From: Dictyostelium discoideum
Taxonomy: Eukaryota
DNA length: 64,000 nt
NCBI GenBank assembly: GCA_000004695.1
Contig: CM000154.2
Span: forward strand, 4,832,001-4,896,000
Reading direction: 5' to 3'
Shown here: one piece after another, positions 1 through 43,094 of the stretch
How positions within the stretch are numbered: position 1 is the stretch's first letter
Layout: every line of letters begins with the position of its first letter
Notes under the pieces: model-generated
What the model was told of the DNA's origin: nothing
What the model saw: the letters and a program-made list of their open reading frames with translations, nothing else
Databases searched by the model: none
Program-made: the position numbers and the translations under genes

Positions 1-721
1 TTATAATTTTAACATAAATTTCAGTTGCTAATTAATTTACATGATTTGAATATATTGACAATCGTTATCTATATGTTTTTCGATATCTTCCCTTTTAATT
101 TTCATTTGACAACCTTTTAACAATCAATTTCATATTTTGGGCATTCAGTAAGATGATTTTTTACTTGATTCTTTGTGATAGATTTCATACAAAATGAACA
201 TACTTTCAATTTATAACCATTGATATTCATGTTCTTGTAATGATTTTAATCTAACAATTTTATCACACCCTTTATATGAACATGGCACAAGTTTAAATTT
301 ACAATTTTGTATATGACTATCTAATAGATCTACAGTTTTAATATCTTTACAGCCATTAATTTGATCTTATACTAATTTTTTTTTTAGATTTTCATCAAAA
401 ACAATTTCCACTTAAAGTTGTGTAAGTGTAAGAATAAATACAAAAACATTCTTCTTTACTAAAAAACTGTTCAATTACTAAACATCTTGATAAATCATTG
501 ATTAAATTTACTTTAATTCTACAAATCATACATTCTTTTTTATTTTTTAATGATGTTTCCCAACATCCTTGACATGCGAAATGGCCAGATTTACATTGAT
601 AAATTGATTTCTTGTAAATAAATTCACAACAAATTGGACATGAATATTTATTATTATTTTGTAATGATTCTTGATTTAATAAAAAATCATTGATTGTAAA
701 TTTGATATCAATTATTGACAT
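1..721 (-). pseudogene. TRAF-like RING + TRAF-type zinc-finger gene, 5' part only (MATH/C-terminus would lie beyond position 1); reading frame broken at least twice
   Basis: ORF 395-721 (-) encodes a C3HC4-like RING (CPICC...[11 protein letters not shown]...CMICR). Downstream on the same strand I translated three TRAF-type zinc-finger units: [43 protein letters not shown], then KVCSFCMKSITKNQVKNHLTECPKYEIDC, then KGCQMKIKREDIEKHIDNDCQYIQI. They are in three different frames with no room for introns between them, which implies +1 and -1 single-nucleotide shifts. The RING-to-finger-1 junction could be a 76-nt GTATTT..AG intron. Confidence 0.45.
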
Positions 722-818
722 ACTCAGAGAGAATATATATATTTTTTTTAAAAAAAAATAGGAATTAAAATAAAATAAATAAATAAGAAATGATTTAATG
801 AATTGGTGAGCACATATA

Positions 819-885
<67 letters not shown>

Positions 886-1191
886 TATGTAAGTAAATTT
901 GAATTTTTGAAAAAATAAAACTGTTATTATAATAAATTAAATTCTATAAATAAAATTTTTGGTTATATAATAATATTTTGGCACACTTGAAAAAAAAAAA
1001 AAAAAAAAAAAAAAAGACTTAAAAAAATAAGAAAAAAAATTGTAATATGGTGACTCAATCAAAAAACACACAAATAATTTTCAAAATTGGCTTAAAAAAA
1101 TAAGAAAAAAATTAAAAAATATTTGAAAATGAAGTAACTACCATTTTCACAATGACAAATTACAAAAAAAAAAAAAAAAAATATTTAAATC

Positions 1192-1223
<32 letters not shown>

Positions 1224-1258
1224 CATTCACAATATAACAATAATAATAATTATTTAAA

Positions 1259-1448
1259 ATGGGTAATTTATTATCTCATACTTATGGAGTCCCTTCAATA
1301 ATTTCAATAATAATTATAGTATCCTCATCAATTTTTTTAATAATTTTAAAAAAAGATAAACAAAAATATATAAATAATCAAATTAATAATCAAATTAATA
1401 ATCAAATTGTTCCTGAAATATCCAATAATAATAGTTATAATAATAGTG

Positions 1449-1543
<95 letters not shown>

Positions 1544-3306
1544 GATGATTCATCTGTTAATCTTGGCAATAATTTAAAAACTACAGATTATGATATTGTA
1601 ATTGATTTACAAAGTGTTGATACATTTGTAATTAAAGATGCTTGTTGGACAGTATATGTCAATAAAGATTTACTTAAAAATGTTAAAGAAGATTCACCAA
1701 ATCCACTAGACTGTCTTTTAGAAGGTTCAAATAAATTTAGAACTGCAACCATTATTGGTTATTTTAAAAGAGGTAAATATTAAATCAATCAATCAATCAA
1801 TTAATCAATCAATCTACATATTTATTAACATTTGTATATTAATTTTCATAATTTTTTTTAATAGGCAAAACCTTTACAGCAAATTTAATAAATAATATTA
1901 ATTTACCATCTGGTAGTAAAACTAAAACAAAAGGTTTATCAATTTATATTTCTCATACAAATGATACTTTATTTATTGATACTCAAGGTAGTAATACTCC
2001 TCTACCATTTTTTGTAGATGAAAATGAAAATGAAGAACTTAAAAAAGCTTATAATATCAATCAAGCTGATGGAAGTATTAAATTGAATAATCTTCATCTT
2101 GCACGTAAGAAAGCAACTGAATCATTCATTCAAGAGACTGCTATTAGTTTATCAAATGTTGTAATTTTCGTTGTTAATGAAATGACATGGCACGATCAAC
2201 AAAATATAATGGCCATTCAAAAGAAGATTAAAACTCAAAATCCAATTGAAAAACAAAAAATCAGAGAACTCTATGTGTTTCATAATTATATGAATATTTC
2301 AAATATGGTTGATCTAATGGCAATGATTAAAACCTATGTAACAACTCCATTCAAAGGTTATTTTCATACTGAATTCAGCCTTCATTCTGATAATGAATAT
2401 ATAATTTATTATACAGATGCCGAGAATTTTACAACTCATTTCTTTTTATGTAATCATGGTAGTGAGTTTGGCAAAAAGTGGAATGAATTAGTGGGTAAAT
2501 TTGTCAAGACTAAAATTAAAAATGTTACAAATCAAAACTATGCATTTGATACAATACTATTAGAAACTTTAAAAGAGAAAATGAAAACCAATATTAAAAA
2601 TCCAACAGATTTAAAAATTGTACCATATTATAATTCTCAAACTCAAGTTGTGGAAATTGAAAATAAATCATCGAGTACAAGATCAAACACATTTGTATAT
2701 AAGAGACAGACTGGTATACCATTAAAGGATCAAAAAACATTGGAAGATTTAGAAGAAATGTTCAATCAAGTTAAAGCACATACTATTGATATTAACCAAG
2801 TTCCAATGTATTCGATTGTACCTGCTATTAAAAATAATGAATATGAGCAATGGAAATATGCATTAAATAACAAGGATATCATTTTCATTGATAATCTATT
2901 GATTGTAACTGGAAGTTTCAATCCAACCTATGACAGTCTTGAATGTGAGAATCGTACATTAATATTCACATTTGATTTACCAGATATTCCAGAATCTCAT
3001 TTCTCTCATTCAATCTACTATGATCCAAGTGACAAAGTTAGATACTTAAAAGTCTCGGGTAATAGAAAATTAAGTTATAGAGCATTAACTGGTACACGTG
3101 GTGGTGAGAGTACAATTAATGAATATCCATCAGCTGGTGTTAAAATTGGTAATAGTTTAAATCTTAGAAAAGATGGAGAATTTGATCTGAGAATTCCAAT
3201 TGAAGCAAATTATAGTAAAAATTATTCAAATCATTTTGAAAATGGTGTTTTAACATTAACATTTAAAGAAGAAATTGAAGGTCTTCCAGATGAAAGTTGC
3301 AAATAA
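1259..3306 (+). CDS. Membrane-anchored GBP/atlastin-like GTPase with C-terminal Hsp20/alpha-crystallin domain; exons 1259-1772 and 1865-3306 (about 651 aa)
   Basis: ORFs 1259-1783 and 2083-3306 are in compatible phase across a 92-nt intron (AG|GTAAAT...TTTAATAG|GC). The splice reconstitutes a P-loop, GYFKRG|KT. Motifs TKGLSIY and LFIDTQG (G3 DxxG) follow, arranged as in GBP/atlastin-type G domains. The C-terminus (FTFDLPDI...ENGVLTLTF) has the Hsp20 beta-sandwich signature. The N-terminus has a hydrophobic anchor (IISIIIIVSSSIFLIIL) and a 30-residue poly-Asn tract encoded by (AAT)n. The ORF-track start at 2083 is TTG, so it is an internal fragment. Confidence 0.7.
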
Positions 3307-3829
3307 AAAAAATATTAAAAAAATAAAAAATAATAAATAAATAATAATCTAAAAAAATAAATCAAAAAAATTAATTTTTTATTACTTTAAGATTATCAAT
3401 CAAAACCCTAAAGTGTTTTGTTTTGTTTTTTTTTTTAATTTTTTTTTTTTATTTTTATTTTTATTTTTTATCTTTTCCCCCCTCGATTTAGGATATTTTT
3501 TTATTTTTATTTTAATTTTTATTTTATTTTTTTTTTATTTTTTATTTTTTTCGTGTGTTTGTGCGCTTATGTGGTTTTATTAAAAAAAAAAAAAAAATTT
3601 CAATTTTTTTGAATTTTTAAGATAAACAAAAATAAAATAACCAATATAAACCATTAATTAAAAAAAAAAAAAGAAGAAAGAAAAGAAAAGGAATAGGGAT
3701 ATTAATAATAAAAACACATAATATAATAAACAATACATAACATATACATATATACACCTCATCCCATATACATATATACATATATACCTACATACACACA
3801 CACACAATAAAATAAATATAAATTAAAGA

Positions 3830-4413
3830 ATGGACTCAATTAAAAGTTTATTAGGAGATAAAGAACCAGAGAAAGAACCATCAATGTGGGATGATTTAAA
3901 TAATCAATGTTCATTAACATTTACACAACGTGTTATTGGTTTTGCAGTATGTGCTGCATTAGGTTTATTATTTGCATTCTTATCATTAATGTTTTTTATA
4001 TCACCAACAACATTTGCACTTTTATTTACATTAGGTGATATATTAATGGTTATGGCGTATGTGTATTTCAAATATTATTATAATTATTATAATTATAATC
4101 ATAAAACACAAACACTAATAATAATAATAATTTTACTTTATTTTATTTTATTTTATTTTTCAGTACTGGTTTTATAGTTGGACCAATTAAACAAATTAAA
4201 AATATGGCAGAACCACATAGAATTATTTGTGCAATCGTATTTGTAGCATCAATGATTCTTACTTTAGTTGCAGTTTTCTTAGATTGGGGTATCATTCTCG
4301 TCATTTTCTTCATTTTATTCCAAGTTGCTTCATTATTATATTACACTTTTTCATATATCCCATATGGTAGACAATGTTTAAGAGGAATGTGTTCTTCTGT
4401 TGTCTCTGTGTAA
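3830..4413 (+). CDS. sft2: Vesicle transport protein SFT2 (Got1/SFT2 family); exons 3830-4056 and 4164-4413
   Basis: Donor GC|GTATGT at 4057 and acceptor TTTTCAG|T at 4163 join ORFs 3830-4177 and 4204-4413 in phase (gc+t gives Ala). The product has the SFT2 four-TM layout and the conserved ...STGFIVGPIKQIKNM... and ...YTFSYIPYGRQ motifs. Confidence 0.85.
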
Positions 4414-37038: not shown

Positions 37039-38810
37039 TTACAATTTAAGTTGTGATTGAACTGATTCGATAGTTGGAGCATCAGAGACATCACCAACAA
37101 CAACGAGGGTTGGTTTTTTGGAGGTCATTTTCTTGGCAACTCTTTTAATATCTTCAGAGGTAACTTTAGAGATTTCTTCAGCAAATTCAGCTGGAGTTAA
37201 AACTTTGTCGGTATAGATAGCTTGTTTACCAATGAATTCGAGGGCAGAGGTTCTGCTTTCAGCTTGTTCTAAAACGCTTGATTTAGTGACAGCTTTAGCA
37301 CGTTCTAATTCTTGACCAGCAGTCTTTGAGGCAGCAACGATTTCAGAGGTAATTAATGAAACAGTCTTACCAACGGTAGCACCTTCAACTTCAGCAACAA
37401 CACCGAATAAACCAGAATCACCATAAGTTAAATTGAATGCTTCAGAATTAACAATATTTGAATTACTTTTAATAAAAAAAAAATAAAAAAAATAAAAGTT
37501 AAAATTATATTTCTAAATCAATTTAATAATTAATAATAATAATAATACAAACTTTTTAGTTAAACTGAATAATCTTGAGGTTCTACCATGACCTGGTGCA
37601 GTCTTTGGACAACCATTACCTAAGATTGATTGTAAAACTGAAAAGGCAGCAACATCTTTAATGTTTGATTGAGCAGTACCTTCAAAAGCAAGAACAACTT
37701 TAGAGTTACCACTTGAATATTTAAGTGATTCACCACCAATATATTGAGCAGTTTCCTAAAATAAACAATATCATCATATTATTATTTTATTCTATTTTAT
37801 TATATATGATCATTATTATTATTATTATTATTAAAAAAAACTTACATTTGAAATTGAAGTTGATGATTCATCATTACCAAAAGTAACTTTTTCAGCTTCT
37901 TCAATTAATTCATTATGTGAAAGACCAACACCAACCAAGATCATATTTGATGGTTTGTAAGTTGAATTTACCCAATTGGTGACGGCATCTTTGGTGATGT
38001 TACCTAAATTGCAAATTGGTGCAACTAATGGACGACCAAGGGTTTTACCACGAAAAGCAGTTTGATGAACAGATTCAAAGATTGAAGAGTATGAATCGTG
38101 ATTGTAGGCTTCAGATTCTTTAACGATGATTTCGGTGACATCACGAACCTCGTGGTATGGAAGGGTTGGTTTGGTGATGTTTGCTAAATTATTCAACATT
38201 TGAAGTGAACGGTTTGGTAAGGTTTGAAGTGCAATCAATAAATTGTCACGTGATGCTTGAGCGAATGCAGTTGAACCAGAGACTTCAATGTCTCTTTGTA
38301 CTTCAATTCCTAATTTGTTGGTGTTTGATTCAAATGCTAATCCCTTAAGAACTTGATTTAAACCTGCAGTCTCTTGTGTTTCATTTCTGCTACCTGTCTT
38401 TATGTAAAGACCTAATGATACTGCTGGTCCTGTATATCCACCAACTAAACTAACTACTTTTAATCCATTTGAAAGTGTTGTTGATTCAACAATTCTTTTA
38501 CTTTCTTGAAATATTGATGTAGTGTACTATTTATATAAATAATATAAAATTAATATTAATATTAATATTTATTTATATAAATATATAAAGTGAAAAAAAA
38601 ATAAAATAAAATGAAAAAAAAAAAAAATCGTTGTGTGTTGTGTGTGTTTTTTTTTTTTTTTTTTTCATAGCGTTTTTTATTTTATTATTTTTTTTTATTT
38701 TTTTATTTTTTTTATTTTTTATTATTATTGTTCTTTTTCCAAAATTGATTTTTTTATTTTTTATTTTTTTATTTTAATTATGATAGATCATACATTTCTA
38801 GCAATGAATC
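37039..38810 (-). CDS. Cytochrome bc1 complex core protein 2-like (inactive M16 peptidase family); exons 38810-38784, 38526-37846, 37755-37553, 37465-37039
   Basis: A 27-nt first exon MIGRFIARN (donor AAT|GTATGA) joins via acceptor AAATAG|TAC at 38527 to ...TTLSNGLKVVSLVGGYTGPAVSLGLYIKTGSRNETQETAGLNQVLKGLAFES..., which has the M16 N-domain fold but no HxxEH. Donor AAT|GTAAGT (37845) and acceptor TTATTTTAG|G (37756) give ...VVLAFEGTAQSNIKDVAAFSVLQSILGNG.... A last intron (37552-37466) gives ...SEAFNLTYGDSGLFGVVAEV...KKPTLVVVGDVSDAPTIE. The whole product is co-linear with UQCRC2/QCR2. The last donor is the non-consensus AA|GTTTGT. Confidence 0.75.
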
Positions 38811-39783
38811 TTCCGATCATTTTGTATTATATTCTCTTAAATTGTTTATTATTGATAATGAATAATATAAAAAATTTGAAGTGAAAAAAAAAAATGTGAT
38901 GAAAAAAAAAAAAAAAAAATTAAAAAAATAAAAAAAAAATAAAATTGAAAAAAAAAAAAAAAAAAAAAATTTAAAAAAAAAAAAAAAAAACCAAAAAAAT
39001 TTTTATTCTTACAAAAAATTGAAGTTCTGATTGATTTAAATAATATTACCAATAAATAAAAAAAAAATTTTAAAACAAAAAATCAAAACAATTTTTCTAT
39101 TTTTAGAGTAACTTTTTTTTTTTTTTTTTTTTCTTTTTCTCAACTCTTTAGTATTATAAAATTAAAAAAATAAAATTGATTCAATAAAAAAAAAATAAAA
39201 AAAAAAATAAAAAAATAATATAAAATAATCAATTATTGACAAAAAACATTCAAATCTTACACAAAACAAAAAAAAATTATTGATATTATTTTATTTATTT
39301 TTAGTATAGATAAATAGAACACAAAAACACACAAAATGGTAAATAAAAAATAAAAAAAATATTAATATTTCTATTTTTTTTAATTTTTTTTTTTTTTTTT
39401 TTTTTATTTTTAAAATTTCGTTGTTTTTCATCCAAAAAAAAAAATAATTTAAATTTTAGTTTTAAAAAAAAAAAAAAAAAAACACAAAATATACCCCCTC
39501 CTATTTTTTTCTTGTGGATAAAATCATAACAAAATTACTCAAATGTATAGTCATTCTCAAATACCCACTACTAGAACTTTCTAAAAATCTCACTTCAAAC
39601 AATTCTTTAAGAAACAAAATTTTGAAACCAAAAGACACCAGAGGTGACCATTTTATATAAAGGTGGGCCACCTCCCCATTCAATATTCAAGTACCTCCTC
39701 TAAAAAATGCAAATGTCAACCAAATTGCAAAATTCAAACAAGATATGAATGACAACATATTGTTGTGGTATACCTATAAATCC

Positions 39784-39814
<31 letters not shown>

Positions 39815-39834
39815 AATTTATCATAAAGTACCTT

Positions 39835-40073
39835 GGAACTCTTGAAGGGAAATTTCTTTTTTCTTTTACTCTTGACGGATATGGTTTTCTCGACAGACAT
39901 AGCATTGGGCATATAAATAAATAAATAAATCACAAAAACAACCATTGTGAGCTATTTAATTGTATGTTATGTGGATTGGTTACTCCAATGCATGACTTAT
40001 GCCCAATGCTTAGATGTAGAGGAAACCTCTCCTTCAAGATTAAAAACAAAAAGAAATTTCCTTCAAGAATTCC
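39835..40073. repeat. Diverged inverted repeat: about 85-bp arms (39835-39918 and 39990-40073, roughly 80% identity) around a 70-bp spacer
   Basis: The left arm ggaactcttgaagggaaatttctttttt...agcattgggcatataaat pairs with the reverse complement of the right arm ...ttatgcccaatgcttagatgtagaggaaacctctccttcaagattaaaaacaaaaagaaatttccttcaagaattcc. It lies inside a 600-bp island (39480-40080) that is clearly less AT-rich than the surrounding intergenic DNA. Confidence 0.6.
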
Positions 40074-40337
40074 ATTTTTGTTATTATTTATCATTTAATA
40101 TATTAAAAAAAAAAAAAAAATTAAAATAAAAAAAAAAAAAAAAAAAAAAAAATCTTATTTTAATATTTTCTCCTATTTTCAATATTTAATTATTTATCAT
40201 TCATTTTTGTAATTATTTTTTTTTTATTTTAAAGAACCAAGAGCGGGGAATATTTTACATTAAAAAAAAATAAAAAAATTGAAGTTCTGGTTAGTTTTTT
40301 TATTTTTTTAACACTACTATTATTTATTTGTATTTAT

Positions 40338-43094
40338 TTATTTGTATTTATTTGTATTTGAAACAATTTTTATAATATTTCTATCAACTTTATCTTGAAT
40401 AAAATCTTTATATCTATTAAATTGATTAATTTTGTTACAAAGTGTTGTATAATTTTTTTGAGATATTGTTAAATTGAATTTTGATTTAATATCTTGATCA
40501 ATTGTATCATTATTTTCAAAATCATCTAATAATAATTTTACAACCAATAGAGGATAGCTTCTTTCAATGATATTTTTTAAACTGAAAAAATAATTCTCCA
40601 TTGGTTTATAATCCATTTGAATATTTTGAGATTTTAATTTCAAATATAAAAAAACTGCAGTTTTATGATCTAAATCTTGGAATCTAACTGGTTGAATGAA
40701 TTCCAACTCATTTTTAAAATCAACATTATTTATCAAATAAAATGTTAAATAATTTGATTTCCATAAGTCAATATAGGAATAATTGTAAATAAATTTAGCT
40801 TTTAATTTTAATGAGAAATATTTAACCATATATTTTATAGTTGTAATATCTATACAATCTGATAATAAATCATCATTAATATCACCAATCCCATTATCAA
40901 AAAGGTATTGTAAAAATTGAATATCACCACTACCACTACCACTACCACCACCATTACCATTATCACCTTTATTATTATTATGATTATTATAACAAATATC
41001 TCTAACTACTGATTTACTAATATCATCTGAATCCCAAGTAAATAATGATTTATGATTTTCAAAATAATATTTAAATAATTTTTTATTATTTAATAAACAA
41101 TGTGCTGAAAATCTCCTTTGATTCGAGTTGATTATGTTGGCTAATCGATTAGCATGTTTTTTAATTTTAAATTGTGTATTTTTTGGATTTATAATATGGC
41201 TTATTAACATTGGATTTGTGAAATTTGTATTTGTAATTGCAATTTTCAAAAACTCTAATTGAGTTTTAATATCAACTCTATCATGATTAAATAAAGGTTG
41301 ACCATCGATTTTGATTTTATGATCTTTATTCATTTTCAATAATTCACAATCTCCATAGTAACATGCTACTCTTACTAAATTATCACCACCTGATGAACAA
41401 GATGGTGGATAAGTTTTTATTAAATCGTATTCCTTATACTCTGAAATGAATTGATAAATCAATGATTCTAAATCATAATTATAAAATCCTTTTTCACTCT
41501 TTGCAAACCAATCAAAATAAAATACTCTTTTAATTTCTCTAACTAATTCAAAATCTTCATAATCAATTTCAGTAAATTCCGTTTCGTCAAAATAAATATA
41601 CTCTTCATTTTCATCTTCTTCTTCATTTTCAACATTATTATTTTTAATAGTATTATTATTATTATTATTAAAAAATGAATAAATATATGATACTGCATCG
41701 TAAATTAAATAAACAATTTTATCATTAGCTGTTGGTGGTGGTGGTGGAGGTGGTGGAGGTGGTGGTGTTGTTGGTGTTGTTGGTGTTGGTTTTATAATAG
41801 CTAAATTATAAATTGAATTTACTTTTTTAGTTGTTTGATTTTCTTTTAAAATATCAGTTTTTTTTAAAATATGTTTGAATGGGGTTTGAATATTTCTATT
41901 TTCATTATATTCTATTAAATGTTCAACTTTTTTAAAAAGTAATGAAGAGATTTGTTTTTCTTTTTTACTAGTTCTATGTGACACTGATAAAACTAGTAAT
42001 GCTGTTAAAATATAATCAATTTGATATTTTTCAAGCACAGATTTTGTTTTGTGGCTTTTGTCAATACAACGACCGTAATTGAAATCTAAATAACTAGCGA
42101 TAGTGCTATAGTTAGCACAACCACTGCCATAATGGTCAAGATAGTTATCAAGTAAATTGTAACTTAGGAAAATATTATTTAAAACTGAAAATGAATTATA
42201 ACCATTGAATTGCAATAATGGAATGTTATAATCATTATATAAACGTTTAAATAATTGGTGATCTAATCTCATCAAATTTTCAAAATATATTTCAAAACTA
42301 CCAGTAAATGAAATTGGTGGTACGAATCCAATTTCATCCAATAGAAATCTAATTAATTCACATCTCTTATTTGAACATAACGCATTATAAAATGCTTTCA
42401 TTGGATCTTTTACCATAATTCCAAGTTCATAATAAATGAATTTAATAATTTTTAAATCACATTTACCTAATGATTTATCAAATAAATCATCATTATTAAT
42501 TCTAAGTTCTTCTATTGTTGTTGTTGTTGTTGTTGTTGTTGTTTTTGTTGTTGCTGAAGTTGAAGTTGAAGAGGAAGTTGAAGAAGAGGAAGTTGATGAT
42601 GGATTGACGGTACCATAATTTTCAAATATAAATTTTAATAAATCTAAATTAGAAGTATCTAATGAAGTTTTAATTAATTCTTGTGTAAGTTTATTTGTAC
42701 TTAATAAAATTGATTTATTTGTATTTAATAATTGATTTAAAATTATTGACGATTCTTCTTTATTTAATGATAGATTATAATGATTATAATAATTATTATT
42801 AAAAAAATAAATAAATGATGTAATAGATTTTGAATCAATTTGATCAAATTTTTCATTTCTTTTAATTTTATATAATAATAATTCTCTTGCATGCTTTAAA
42901 CACCATTCAAAACCTGCTTGATCATATTTTTTAATTTTAAAACAATCTTCTGAATATGATCTACCACCATAAGAAATTTGTTCATTAAATTTATAAACAT
43001 AATCATATATATAATTTGATAAATATTTATTATTAAATACTGATTTATATAAACTATAAATATCTTTATTTTTATTTTTATTTAAATTATTCAT
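40338..43094 (-). CDS. Large hypothetical protein (918 aa, single exon) with a TPTTPTTPPPPPPPPPPPTA linker and a Ser/Thr tract
   Basis: One uninterrupted ORF. Codon usage matches the neighbours. Outside two short tracts it is not low-complexity. I did not recognise any catalytic motif; the C-terminal third is possibly degenerate ankyrin or helical-repeat sequence. Confidence 0.7.
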   Translation of the reverse strand: MNNLNKNKNKDIYSLYKSVFNNKYLSNYIYDYVYKFNEQISYGGRSYSEDCFKIKKYDQAGFEWCLKHARELLLYKIKRNEKFDQIDSKSITSFIYFFNNNYYNHYNLSLNKEESSIILNQLLNTNKSILLSTNKLTQELIKTSLDTSNLDLLKFIFENYGTVNPSSTSSSSTSSSTSTSATTKTTTTTTTTTIEELRINNDDLFDKSLGKCDLKIIKFIYYELGIMVKDPMKAFYNALCSNKRCELIRFLLDEIGFVPPISFTGSFEIYFENLMRLDHQLFKRLYNDYNIPLLQFNGYNSFSVLNNIFLSYNLLDNYLDHYGSGCANYSTIASYLDFNYGRCIDKSHKTKSVLEKYQIDYILTALLVLSVSHRTSKKEKQISSLLFKKVEHLIEYNENRNIQTPFKHILKKTDILKENQTTKKVNSIYNLAIIKPTPTTPTTPPPPPPPPPPPTANDKIVYLIYDAVSYIYSFFNNNNNNTIKNNNVENEEEDENEEYIYFDETEFTEIDYEDFELVREIKRVFYFDWFAKSEKGFYNYDLESLIYQFISEYKEYDLIKTYPPSCSSGGDNLVRVACYYGDCELLKMNKDHKIKIDGQPLFNHDRVDIKTQLEFLKIAITNTNFTNPMLISHIINPKNTQFKIKKHANRLANIINSNQRRFSAHCLLNNKKLFKYYFENHKSLFTWDSDDISKSVVRDICYNNHNNNKGDNGNGGGSGSGSGDIQFLQYLFDNGIGDINDDLLSDCIDITTIKYMVKYFSLKLKAKFIYNYSYIDLWKSNYLTFYLINNVDFKNELEFIQPVRFQDLDHKTAVFLYLKLKSQNIQMDYKPMENYFFSLKNIIERSYPLLVVKLLLDDFENNDTIDQDIKSKFNLTISQKNYTTLCNKINQFNRYKDFIQDKVDRNIIKIVSNTNKYK

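Follow-up and report, generated by a model that had tools for sequence, protein, structure and literature searches.

The inverted repeat at positions 39835-40073 of the window, by which we mean the whole 64,000-nt stretch of Dictyostelium discoideum AX4 chromosome 5 analysed here, is almost certainly the precursor stem of a published D. discoideum microRNA, miRNA_can_D2. Among the candidates raised in the original prediction, a structured noncoding RNA precursor or hairpin RNA turned out to be the right one, the repeat corresponding to the published miRNA_can_D2 precursor with a mature strand in each of its arms. The locus is already known: small-RNA sequencing revealed it in 2016, confirmation followed in 2018, and its identification here in itself adds nothing. 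In the literature surveyed, the miRNA_can_D2 sequence was found only in those two reports (Meier 2016, Liao 2018); it does not appear in the supplement to a stringent 2024 re-annotation of miRNAs in the Amoebozoa, in which can_D1 was renamed ddi-mir-1186 and from which some miRNAs reported earlier were not recovered. Compared with the published miRNA_can_D2 (PMC4894637, PMC6161686), the locus described here has the same mature sequences, strand and coordinates, and differs in possessing a stem that is ~48 nt longer on each side.

Published chromosome 5 coordinates were converted to window positions by subtraction of 4,832,000. The hairpin listed as intergenic at DDB0232432:4871883-4872029 (+) (Liao 2018 Table S1, PMC6161686) thereby becomes a 147-nt pre-miRNA at 39883-40029 (+), and the mature positions at chr5 4871887..4871908 and 4872005..4872026 on the plus strand (Meier 2016 Table S4, PMC4894637) become 39887-39908 for the dominant strand, miRNA_can_D2-5p (TTCTCGACAGACATAGCATTGG), and 40005-40026 for the star strand, miRNA_can_D2-3p (AATGCTTAGATGTAGAGGAAAC). 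Within the window, each mature sequence has a single exact match, which is on the + strand. The primary transcript and upstream motif of the same locus were reported at DDB0232432:4871472-4872110 (+) and DDB0232432:4871397-4871423, respectively (Liao 2018 Table S3, PMC6161686), and because the single offset of 4,832,000 fits the motif, the primary transcript, the hairpin and the mature positions alike, all of the published coordinates are reconciled.

The 5p and 3p sequences lie on opposite arms of the predicted fold, in which pairing involves 16 of the 22 nt of 5p and leaves 3' overhangs of 2 and 3 nt; as modelled, this is a Dicer-type duplex. Liao 2018 applied the high-confidence criteria of Kozomara & Griffiths-Jones 2014, which call for mature strands on opposite arms, pairing of at least 60% of the duplex bases and a 3' overhang of 0-4 nt, all of which miRNA_can_D2 displays, together with at least 10 reads per arm, at least 50% of them with a common 5' end. 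At 37 C the 147-nt hairpin folds with an energy of -56.5 kcal/mol, or -0.38 kcal/mol/nt, which lies below the -0.2 threshold, and a longer, 257-nt hairpin reaches -0.39 kcal/mol/nt; the published value is -0.51 kcal/mol/nt (Liao 2018, PMC6161686).

Published expression data describe a small RNA of low abundance whose levels respond strongly to mutations in the silencing machinery. Raw 5p reads numbered 14 in AX2, 827 in agnA- and 2 in rbdB- cells, with a normalised count of 915 in agnA- (Meier 2016, PMC4894637), and the miRNA_can_D2 small RNAs were reported as ~65-fold up in agnA- and down in rbdB-. By Northern analysis a signal was detected only in agnA- and rrpC- strains, and none in the wild type (PMC4894637). 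Liao 2018 subsequently listed can_D2 among the DrnB-dependent candidates with 55 reads for 5p and 10 for 3p (Table S1, PMC6161686), and gave 5' precisions of 88% (5p) and 56% (3p), reporting that the locus qualified under every one of the high-confidence criteria (PMC6161686). Differential expression of miRNA_can_D2 in development was stated by the authors as 'data not shown'.

The features originally read from the sequence were for the most part borne out. The repeat itself was confirmed at 39835-40073, its arms being 79 nt (39835-39913, +) and 76 nt (39998-40073, +) in length instead of the 85 first proposed, and the identity of ~80% claimed for them compares with 65 of 79 columns, or 82%, when 39835-39913 is globally aligned with the reverse complement of 39998-40073. 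The palindromic core holds exactly, AGCATTGGGCATA (39901-39913) and TATGCCCAATGCT (39998-40010) forming a perfect 13-nt complement. Weaker, low-complexity complementarity continues outward from the arms, where a T-run at 39787-39813 faces an A-run at 40106-40132. Folding of the region, which had been suggested as a check, yielded for the + strand RNA of 39825-40085 a single long hairpin, capped by a branched terminal loop, at -100.9 kcal/mol, equivalent to a z score of -12.3 against 200 dinucleotide shuffles (mean -46.6 +/- 4.4), none of which folded as well (0/200). The 84-nt terminal loop spans 39914-39997 (+) in this fold, and an (ATAA)4 microsatellite is situated at ~39913-39930, at the top of the 5' arm. 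The hairpin is retained when the whole 39472-40110 transcript is folded. The - strand of the hairpin region folds nearly as well (-95 kcal/mol, z = -11), so the strand is not given by the fold alone.

At both ends the paired stem outruns the published 147-nt hairpin by ~48 nt, reaching 39835 and 40073 through lower-stem extensions at 39835-39882 in the 5' arm and 40030-40073 in the 3' arm. With ~79 nt per arm the stem is far longer than the annotated precursor, and part of the output of the locus could therefore be siRNA-like. One may accordingly picture a long-hairpin endogenous siRNA locus, whose ~79-bp stem is diced in several registers and whose published 5p and 3p are simply the most abundant product. 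The length of the additional stem would suit such a locus: the 52 nt that separate the stem base at 39835 from the 5p start at 39887 would accommodate two extra 22-nt duplexes, and two adjacent duplexes are known from other published D. discoideum hairpins. The low read counts and the 56% precision of 3p (Liao 2018, PMC6161686) also point in this direction, as does the failure of the 2024 stringent pipeline to recover can_D2. We nevertheless regard an siRNA locus as unlikely, because the 88% precision of 5p and the full set of reported high-confidence features (PMC6161686) speak for a miRNA, as does the miRNA-type response in the rbdB- and agnA- mutants. For the lower stem an siRNA reading is possible, though not the one we favour; in addition to the miRNA duplex, the unannotated ~48-bp lower stem may yield phased small RNAs.

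The miRNA_can_D2 hairpin sits within a block of mixed base composition that was originally described as foreign to its A/T-rich surroundings. The compositional contrast is real, with 28.3% GC at 39472-40110 against 10.3% and 12.8% in the flanking spacers (the window overall has 21.8%), and since this GC-richer island coincides with the published pri-miRNA at 39472-40110 (+), predicted from poly(A) RNA-seq coverage (Liao 2018 Table S3), the island is the primary miRNA transcript. The statement that the block holds no ORF is true in a loose sense: both strands contain mechanical ORFs of 54-81 aa, and a Pfam search with the four mechanical ORFs of the island returned no matches. No relevant Rfam family was found, either with gathering thresholds across the whole window or with a permissive E-value across 39300-40300, where one chance match to rli24 appeared at E = 5.4. 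A tRNA scan of the window was likewise negative, and a scan for bacterial promoters and terminators, a method unsuited to a eukaryote, returned nothing. In the whole-transcript fold, a small local hairpin, AGGTGACC...GGCCACCT, forms at 39640-39675 (+) in the pri-miRNA leader; it is not conserved in two other assemblies labelled D. discoideum, those of strains ACTFIW (GCA_054859355.1) and ACTFIR (GCA_054859385.1).

Two T-rich elements are candidates for the site at which transcription begins. The putative start motif assigned by Liao 2018 (Table S3), whose presence we checked in the sequence, occupies 39397-39423 (+) and ends in a G at 39423; motifs of the same type, T-rich up to a G, precede 13 other pri-miRNAs (Liao 2018, PMC6161686). 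A second element at 39774-39814 (+), directly 5' of the hairpin, consists of TATAAAT, 28 T and then a G (run and G at 39786-39814), and it fits the published 'T-run then G' motif (Liao 2018 section 2.8) better than the assigned 39397-39423. This internal match may mark an alternative transcription start, as judged from the sequence, and the adjoining leader block at 39668-39785 could then supply promoter or regulatory sequence for it. Poly(A) coverage beginning at 39472 argues for the longer transcript over an internal start. The internal element varies among assemblies, the G being replaced by A in both ACTFIW and ACTFIR and the run shortened to 25 T in the AX4-type assembly. The block 39668-39785 is 90% identical to AX4 in ACTFIW and 78% in ACTFIR, values that exceed those for the mature 5p (see below), and the leader segment 39480-39640 is missing from ACTFIW.

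Drawing on what has been found for other D. discoideum miRNAs, we propose that miRNA_can_D2 would be produced from a ~640-nt poly(A)+ primary transcript of the + strand, presumably made by RNA polymerase II, that would run between the mitochondrial-processing-peptidase alpha-2 gene and DDB_G0290999, in the reverse orientation to both. Transcription would start downstream of the T-rich motif, a mode of initiation that has been shown experimentally for pri-mir-1176, -1177 and -7097. The 3' half of the pri-miRNA would then fold into the long imperfect hairpin, from the top of whose stem the nuclear Dicer-like protein DrnB and the dsRNA-binding protein RbdB would cut the 22-nt duplex (39887-39908 / 40005-40026); the 5p strand would accumulate, presumably become loaded into Argonaute and repress its targets. 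For can_D2 itself, we infer Pol II transcription, Argonaute loading and target repression, as well as any role of the lower stem. When the 64-kb window was searched for complements or near-copies of 5p or 3p with no more than 3 mismatches, the locus itself was returned and nothing else, so there is no target or parent sequence within the 64 kb; likewise, neither the window nor the fetched loci of other assemblies yielded a gene similar to the arms that could be their parent or target.

The genes on either side supplied the anchors for comparison with other strains and species. The ORF at 40338-43094 (-) corresponds residue-for-residue to DDB_G0290999 of D. discoideum AX4, and the gene at ~37042-38820 (-) is that of mitochondrial-processing peptidase subunit alpha-2 (Q54F93). 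A 433-aa concatenation of the peptidase exons retrieved nine named dictyostelid orthologues and three further close homologues, with E values down to 1e-253; a single 227-aa exon used as query gave no match at E <= 1e-20, the word-based prefilter evidently missing near-identical proteins. At the DNA level the peptidase exons are 92-93% identical to those of D. citrinum and 98-99% identical to those of ACTFIW and ACTFIR, and the protein clusters at >=90%. DDB_G0290999 carries no Pfam domain and evolves very rapidly: its product and that of the D. citrinum orthologue agree at 47% of amino acids, and at its 3' end the DNA identity to two other D. discoideum-labelled assemblies is only 93%. A 14-mer, TTATTTATTTGTAT, is present as an exact tandem duplicate at 40320-40347, overlapping the stop-codon region of DDB_G0290999, and is likewise repeated at the equivalent position in D. 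cf. discoideum ACTFIY.

The syntenic region was fetched from nine assemblies via both flanking genes, and the spacer was measured between the DDB_G0290999 orthologue and the peptidase orthologue. Three of these assemblies are labelled D. discoideum, and their spacers are long: 1500 bp in the AX4-type assembly, 1385 bp in ACTFIR and 1170 bp in ACTFIW. Five others are short, namely those of D. citrinum (740 bp), D. cf. discoideum ACTFIZ (596 bp), D. dimigraforme (593 bp), D. firmibasis (433 bp) and D. purpureum (432 bp); these five (432-740 bp) contain 9-14% GC and are without the mixed-composition block. The spacer of D. cf. discoideum ACTFIY, at 533-4000 of the fetched ACTFIY locus, measures 3468 bp and is rearranged, with two extra predicted genes. 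These genes, of 206 aa and 184 aa (the latter with a weak TIG match), are found in no other assembly; in the same locus a 107-bp piece with an 87% match to 39555-39656 adjoins the end of the DDB_G0290999 orthologue.

Across the nine assemblies compared, the miRNA_can_D2 hairpin is present only in those labelled D. discoideum, in diverged form in ACTFIW and ACTFIR, and the syntenic spacers of the other six, which represent five named taxa (D. citrinum, D. dimigraforme, D. firmibasis, D. purpureum and, with two assemblies, D. cf. discoideum), lack it. The start-motif word AAATTTCGTT is similarly confined to the three fetched D. discoideum loci with the hairpin. Because the hairpin and AAATTTCGTT both occur only in D. 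discoideum-labelled assemblies, the promoter-plus-hairpin module is specific to D. discoideum proper. Conservation across species is limited to ~200 bp beside the peptidase start (38821-39032), and none of the related species compared has an orthologous hairpin that preserves the mature sequence, as would be expected of a conserved miRNA family. The synteny analysis of the 2024 Amoebozoa study did not include the can_D2 locus.

The distribution of the module also bears on the other candidate of the original prediction, a non-autonomous DNA transposon (MITE) remnant with terminal inverted repeats, of which the small RNAs would be a by-product. Such an origin has some appeal for an inverted repeat within an AT-rich spacer, given that the entire module represents an insertion or deletion relative to the sister species and that some D. 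discoideum miRNA loci reside in the repetitive element thug-S (Liao 2018, PMC6161686). The checks proposed at the outset nonetheless turned against it. Published mapping assigned can_D2 to one locus, in contrast to the multicopy can_D3, which mapped to several positions (PMC4894637), and the motif analysis of Liao 2018 dropped multicopy loci and retained can_D2 (PMC6161686). No second copy was found in the 64-kb window by BLAST or by a search with the mature sequences, the BLAST comparison of the island with the window returning only low-complexity T/A-run matches and the inverted repeat itself. The flanks AAAGTACCTT and ATTTTTGTTA are without a direct repeat that could be taken for a target-site duplication. 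Moreover, the boundaries of the empty site fall away from the repeat ends: the block missing from the relatives runs from ~39033 to ~40310 (~1.2 kb) and is not delimited by the repeat, and ACTFIY possesses 39555-39656, upstream of the repeat, without possessing the repeat. D. discoideum miRNAs associated with thug-S likewise have an inverted-repeat hairpin, but can_D2 exists as a single copy, is not flanked by a target-site duplication and lies outside known repeats. Taken with these observations, a transposon remnant is very improbable.

Among the assemblies labelled D. discoideum, the miRNA_can_D2 locus occurs in two diverged forms. The AX4-type assembly equals AX4 except in the lengths of homopolymers, and ACTFIW and ACTFIR constitute a second lineage, with 99.4% mutual identity in the neighbouring gene and 92.8% identity to AX4; these strains may represent a cryptic sister population. 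Both lineage members form a long hairpin that is weaker than that of AX4 (-74.8 kcal/mol for ACTFIW and -86.8 for ACTFIR, against -100.9). Identity to AX4 (ACTFIW and ACTFIR, respectively) is highest in the 3' lower stem (96% in both) and the loop (93% and 94%), is 89% in both for the 5' lower stem, declines to 87% and 83% in 3p, and falls to 73% and 19% in 5p. The dominant 5p arm is thus the least conserved segment of the hairpin between D. discoideum lineages, which argues against a conserved target interaction. The 5p of ACTFIW has a different seed and reads TTTTTTGCAGATATAGCATTGT in the alignment, and in ACTFIR an expanded (AAAT)n, possibly an assembly artefact, replaces the upper 5' arm. 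At ~2860-2990 of the fetched GCA_054859385.1 region (- strand of the locus), many further units have been added to the (ATAA)4 of AX4, and the tract takes the place of the 13-nt 5' core.

Variation at paired positions affects 20 of the 93 pairs that make up the AX4 fold, a count that is biased in that the structure was derived from AX4. One clean compensatory change was found, at 39889/40021 (C-G to U-A), and at 39877/40032 an A.A mismatch is replaced by a G-C pair; most of the other varying pairs are unpaired in the non-AX4 alleles. Since ACTFIW and ACTFIR form one lineage and there is no outgroup with the hairpin, the differences between AX4 and these two strains are treated here as unpolarised. 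Concerted evolution of the two arms was considered as well and rejected, orthologous arms being 89-96% alike and the arms within a genome only ~82%.

Collectively, the locus has the appearance of a young miRNA that is restricted to D. discoideum and only weakly constrained, and two readings of that youth were weighed. By the first, the hairpin would be a neutral 'proto-miRNA' that is transcribed and diced and regulates nothing, a proposal about function that leaves the identity of the locus as the miRNA_can_D2 precursor untouched. Its restriction to D. discoideum fits this proposal, as do the very low wild-type abundance (PMC4894637), the lineage-specific variation of the 5p seed and the partial deletion and replacement of the 5p arm by (AAAT)n in ACTFIR; in addition, the 2024 Amoebozoa study reports normal development of drnB- cells and a rapid turnover of miRNAs in the Amoebozoa. 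Neutrality sits less comfortably with the good conservation of the lower stem, loop and promoter word between lineages, with the changes at 39889/40021 and 39877/40032 that keep or improve pairing, and with the reported developmental regulation, and we hold it to be a serious possibility that is somewhat less probable than its negation. By the second reading, to which we assign slightly less than an even chance, miRNA_can_D2 would be a newborn and still polymorphic miRNA gene, whose module is found only in D. discoideum proper, whose dominant arm changes fastest and whose upper 5' arm has been lost to (AAAT)n in ACTFIR.

Set beside other small-RNA loci, miRNA_can_D2 shares much with the established intergenic miRNAs of its species. 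Like ddi-mir-1176, -1177, -7097 and -1186, it is intergenic, has a T-run-G upstream, depends on DrnB and RbdB, is elevated in agnA- and gives a 21-22-nt product. Members of that class have a capped Pol II-type primary transcript, whereas for can_D2 the start is predicted and the cap presumed. Relative to other intergenic D. discoideum miRNAs, can_D2 is lower in abundance and longer in stem; the 2024 Amoebozoa study took unusually long hairpins as a mark of young miRNAs. The same study found ddi-mir-1177 to be conserved across group 4 dictyostelids, in contrast to can_D2, which is absent from the spacers of D. firmibasis, D. citrinum and the other relatives compared. Young plant MIR genes and Drosophila hairpin-RNA endo-siRNA loci are also long and imperfect, lineage-restricted, fast-evolving and weakly expressed, but can_D2 differs from them in its amoebozoan DrnB/RbdB processing.

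For the study of miRNAs in D. discoideum, the recovery of this locus means that a real miRNA precursor was detectable from composition and self-complementarity alone in a genome of 80% A+T. The comparative result is new and constitutes a modest addition to the published account of rapid miRNA gain and loss in the Amoebozoa, and it singles out strains whose miRNA is predicted to be different or missing. If miRNA_can_D2 is indeed a newborn and polymorphic gene, its strong, weak and broken hairpins would form a natural allelic series for following the birth and loss of a miRNA.
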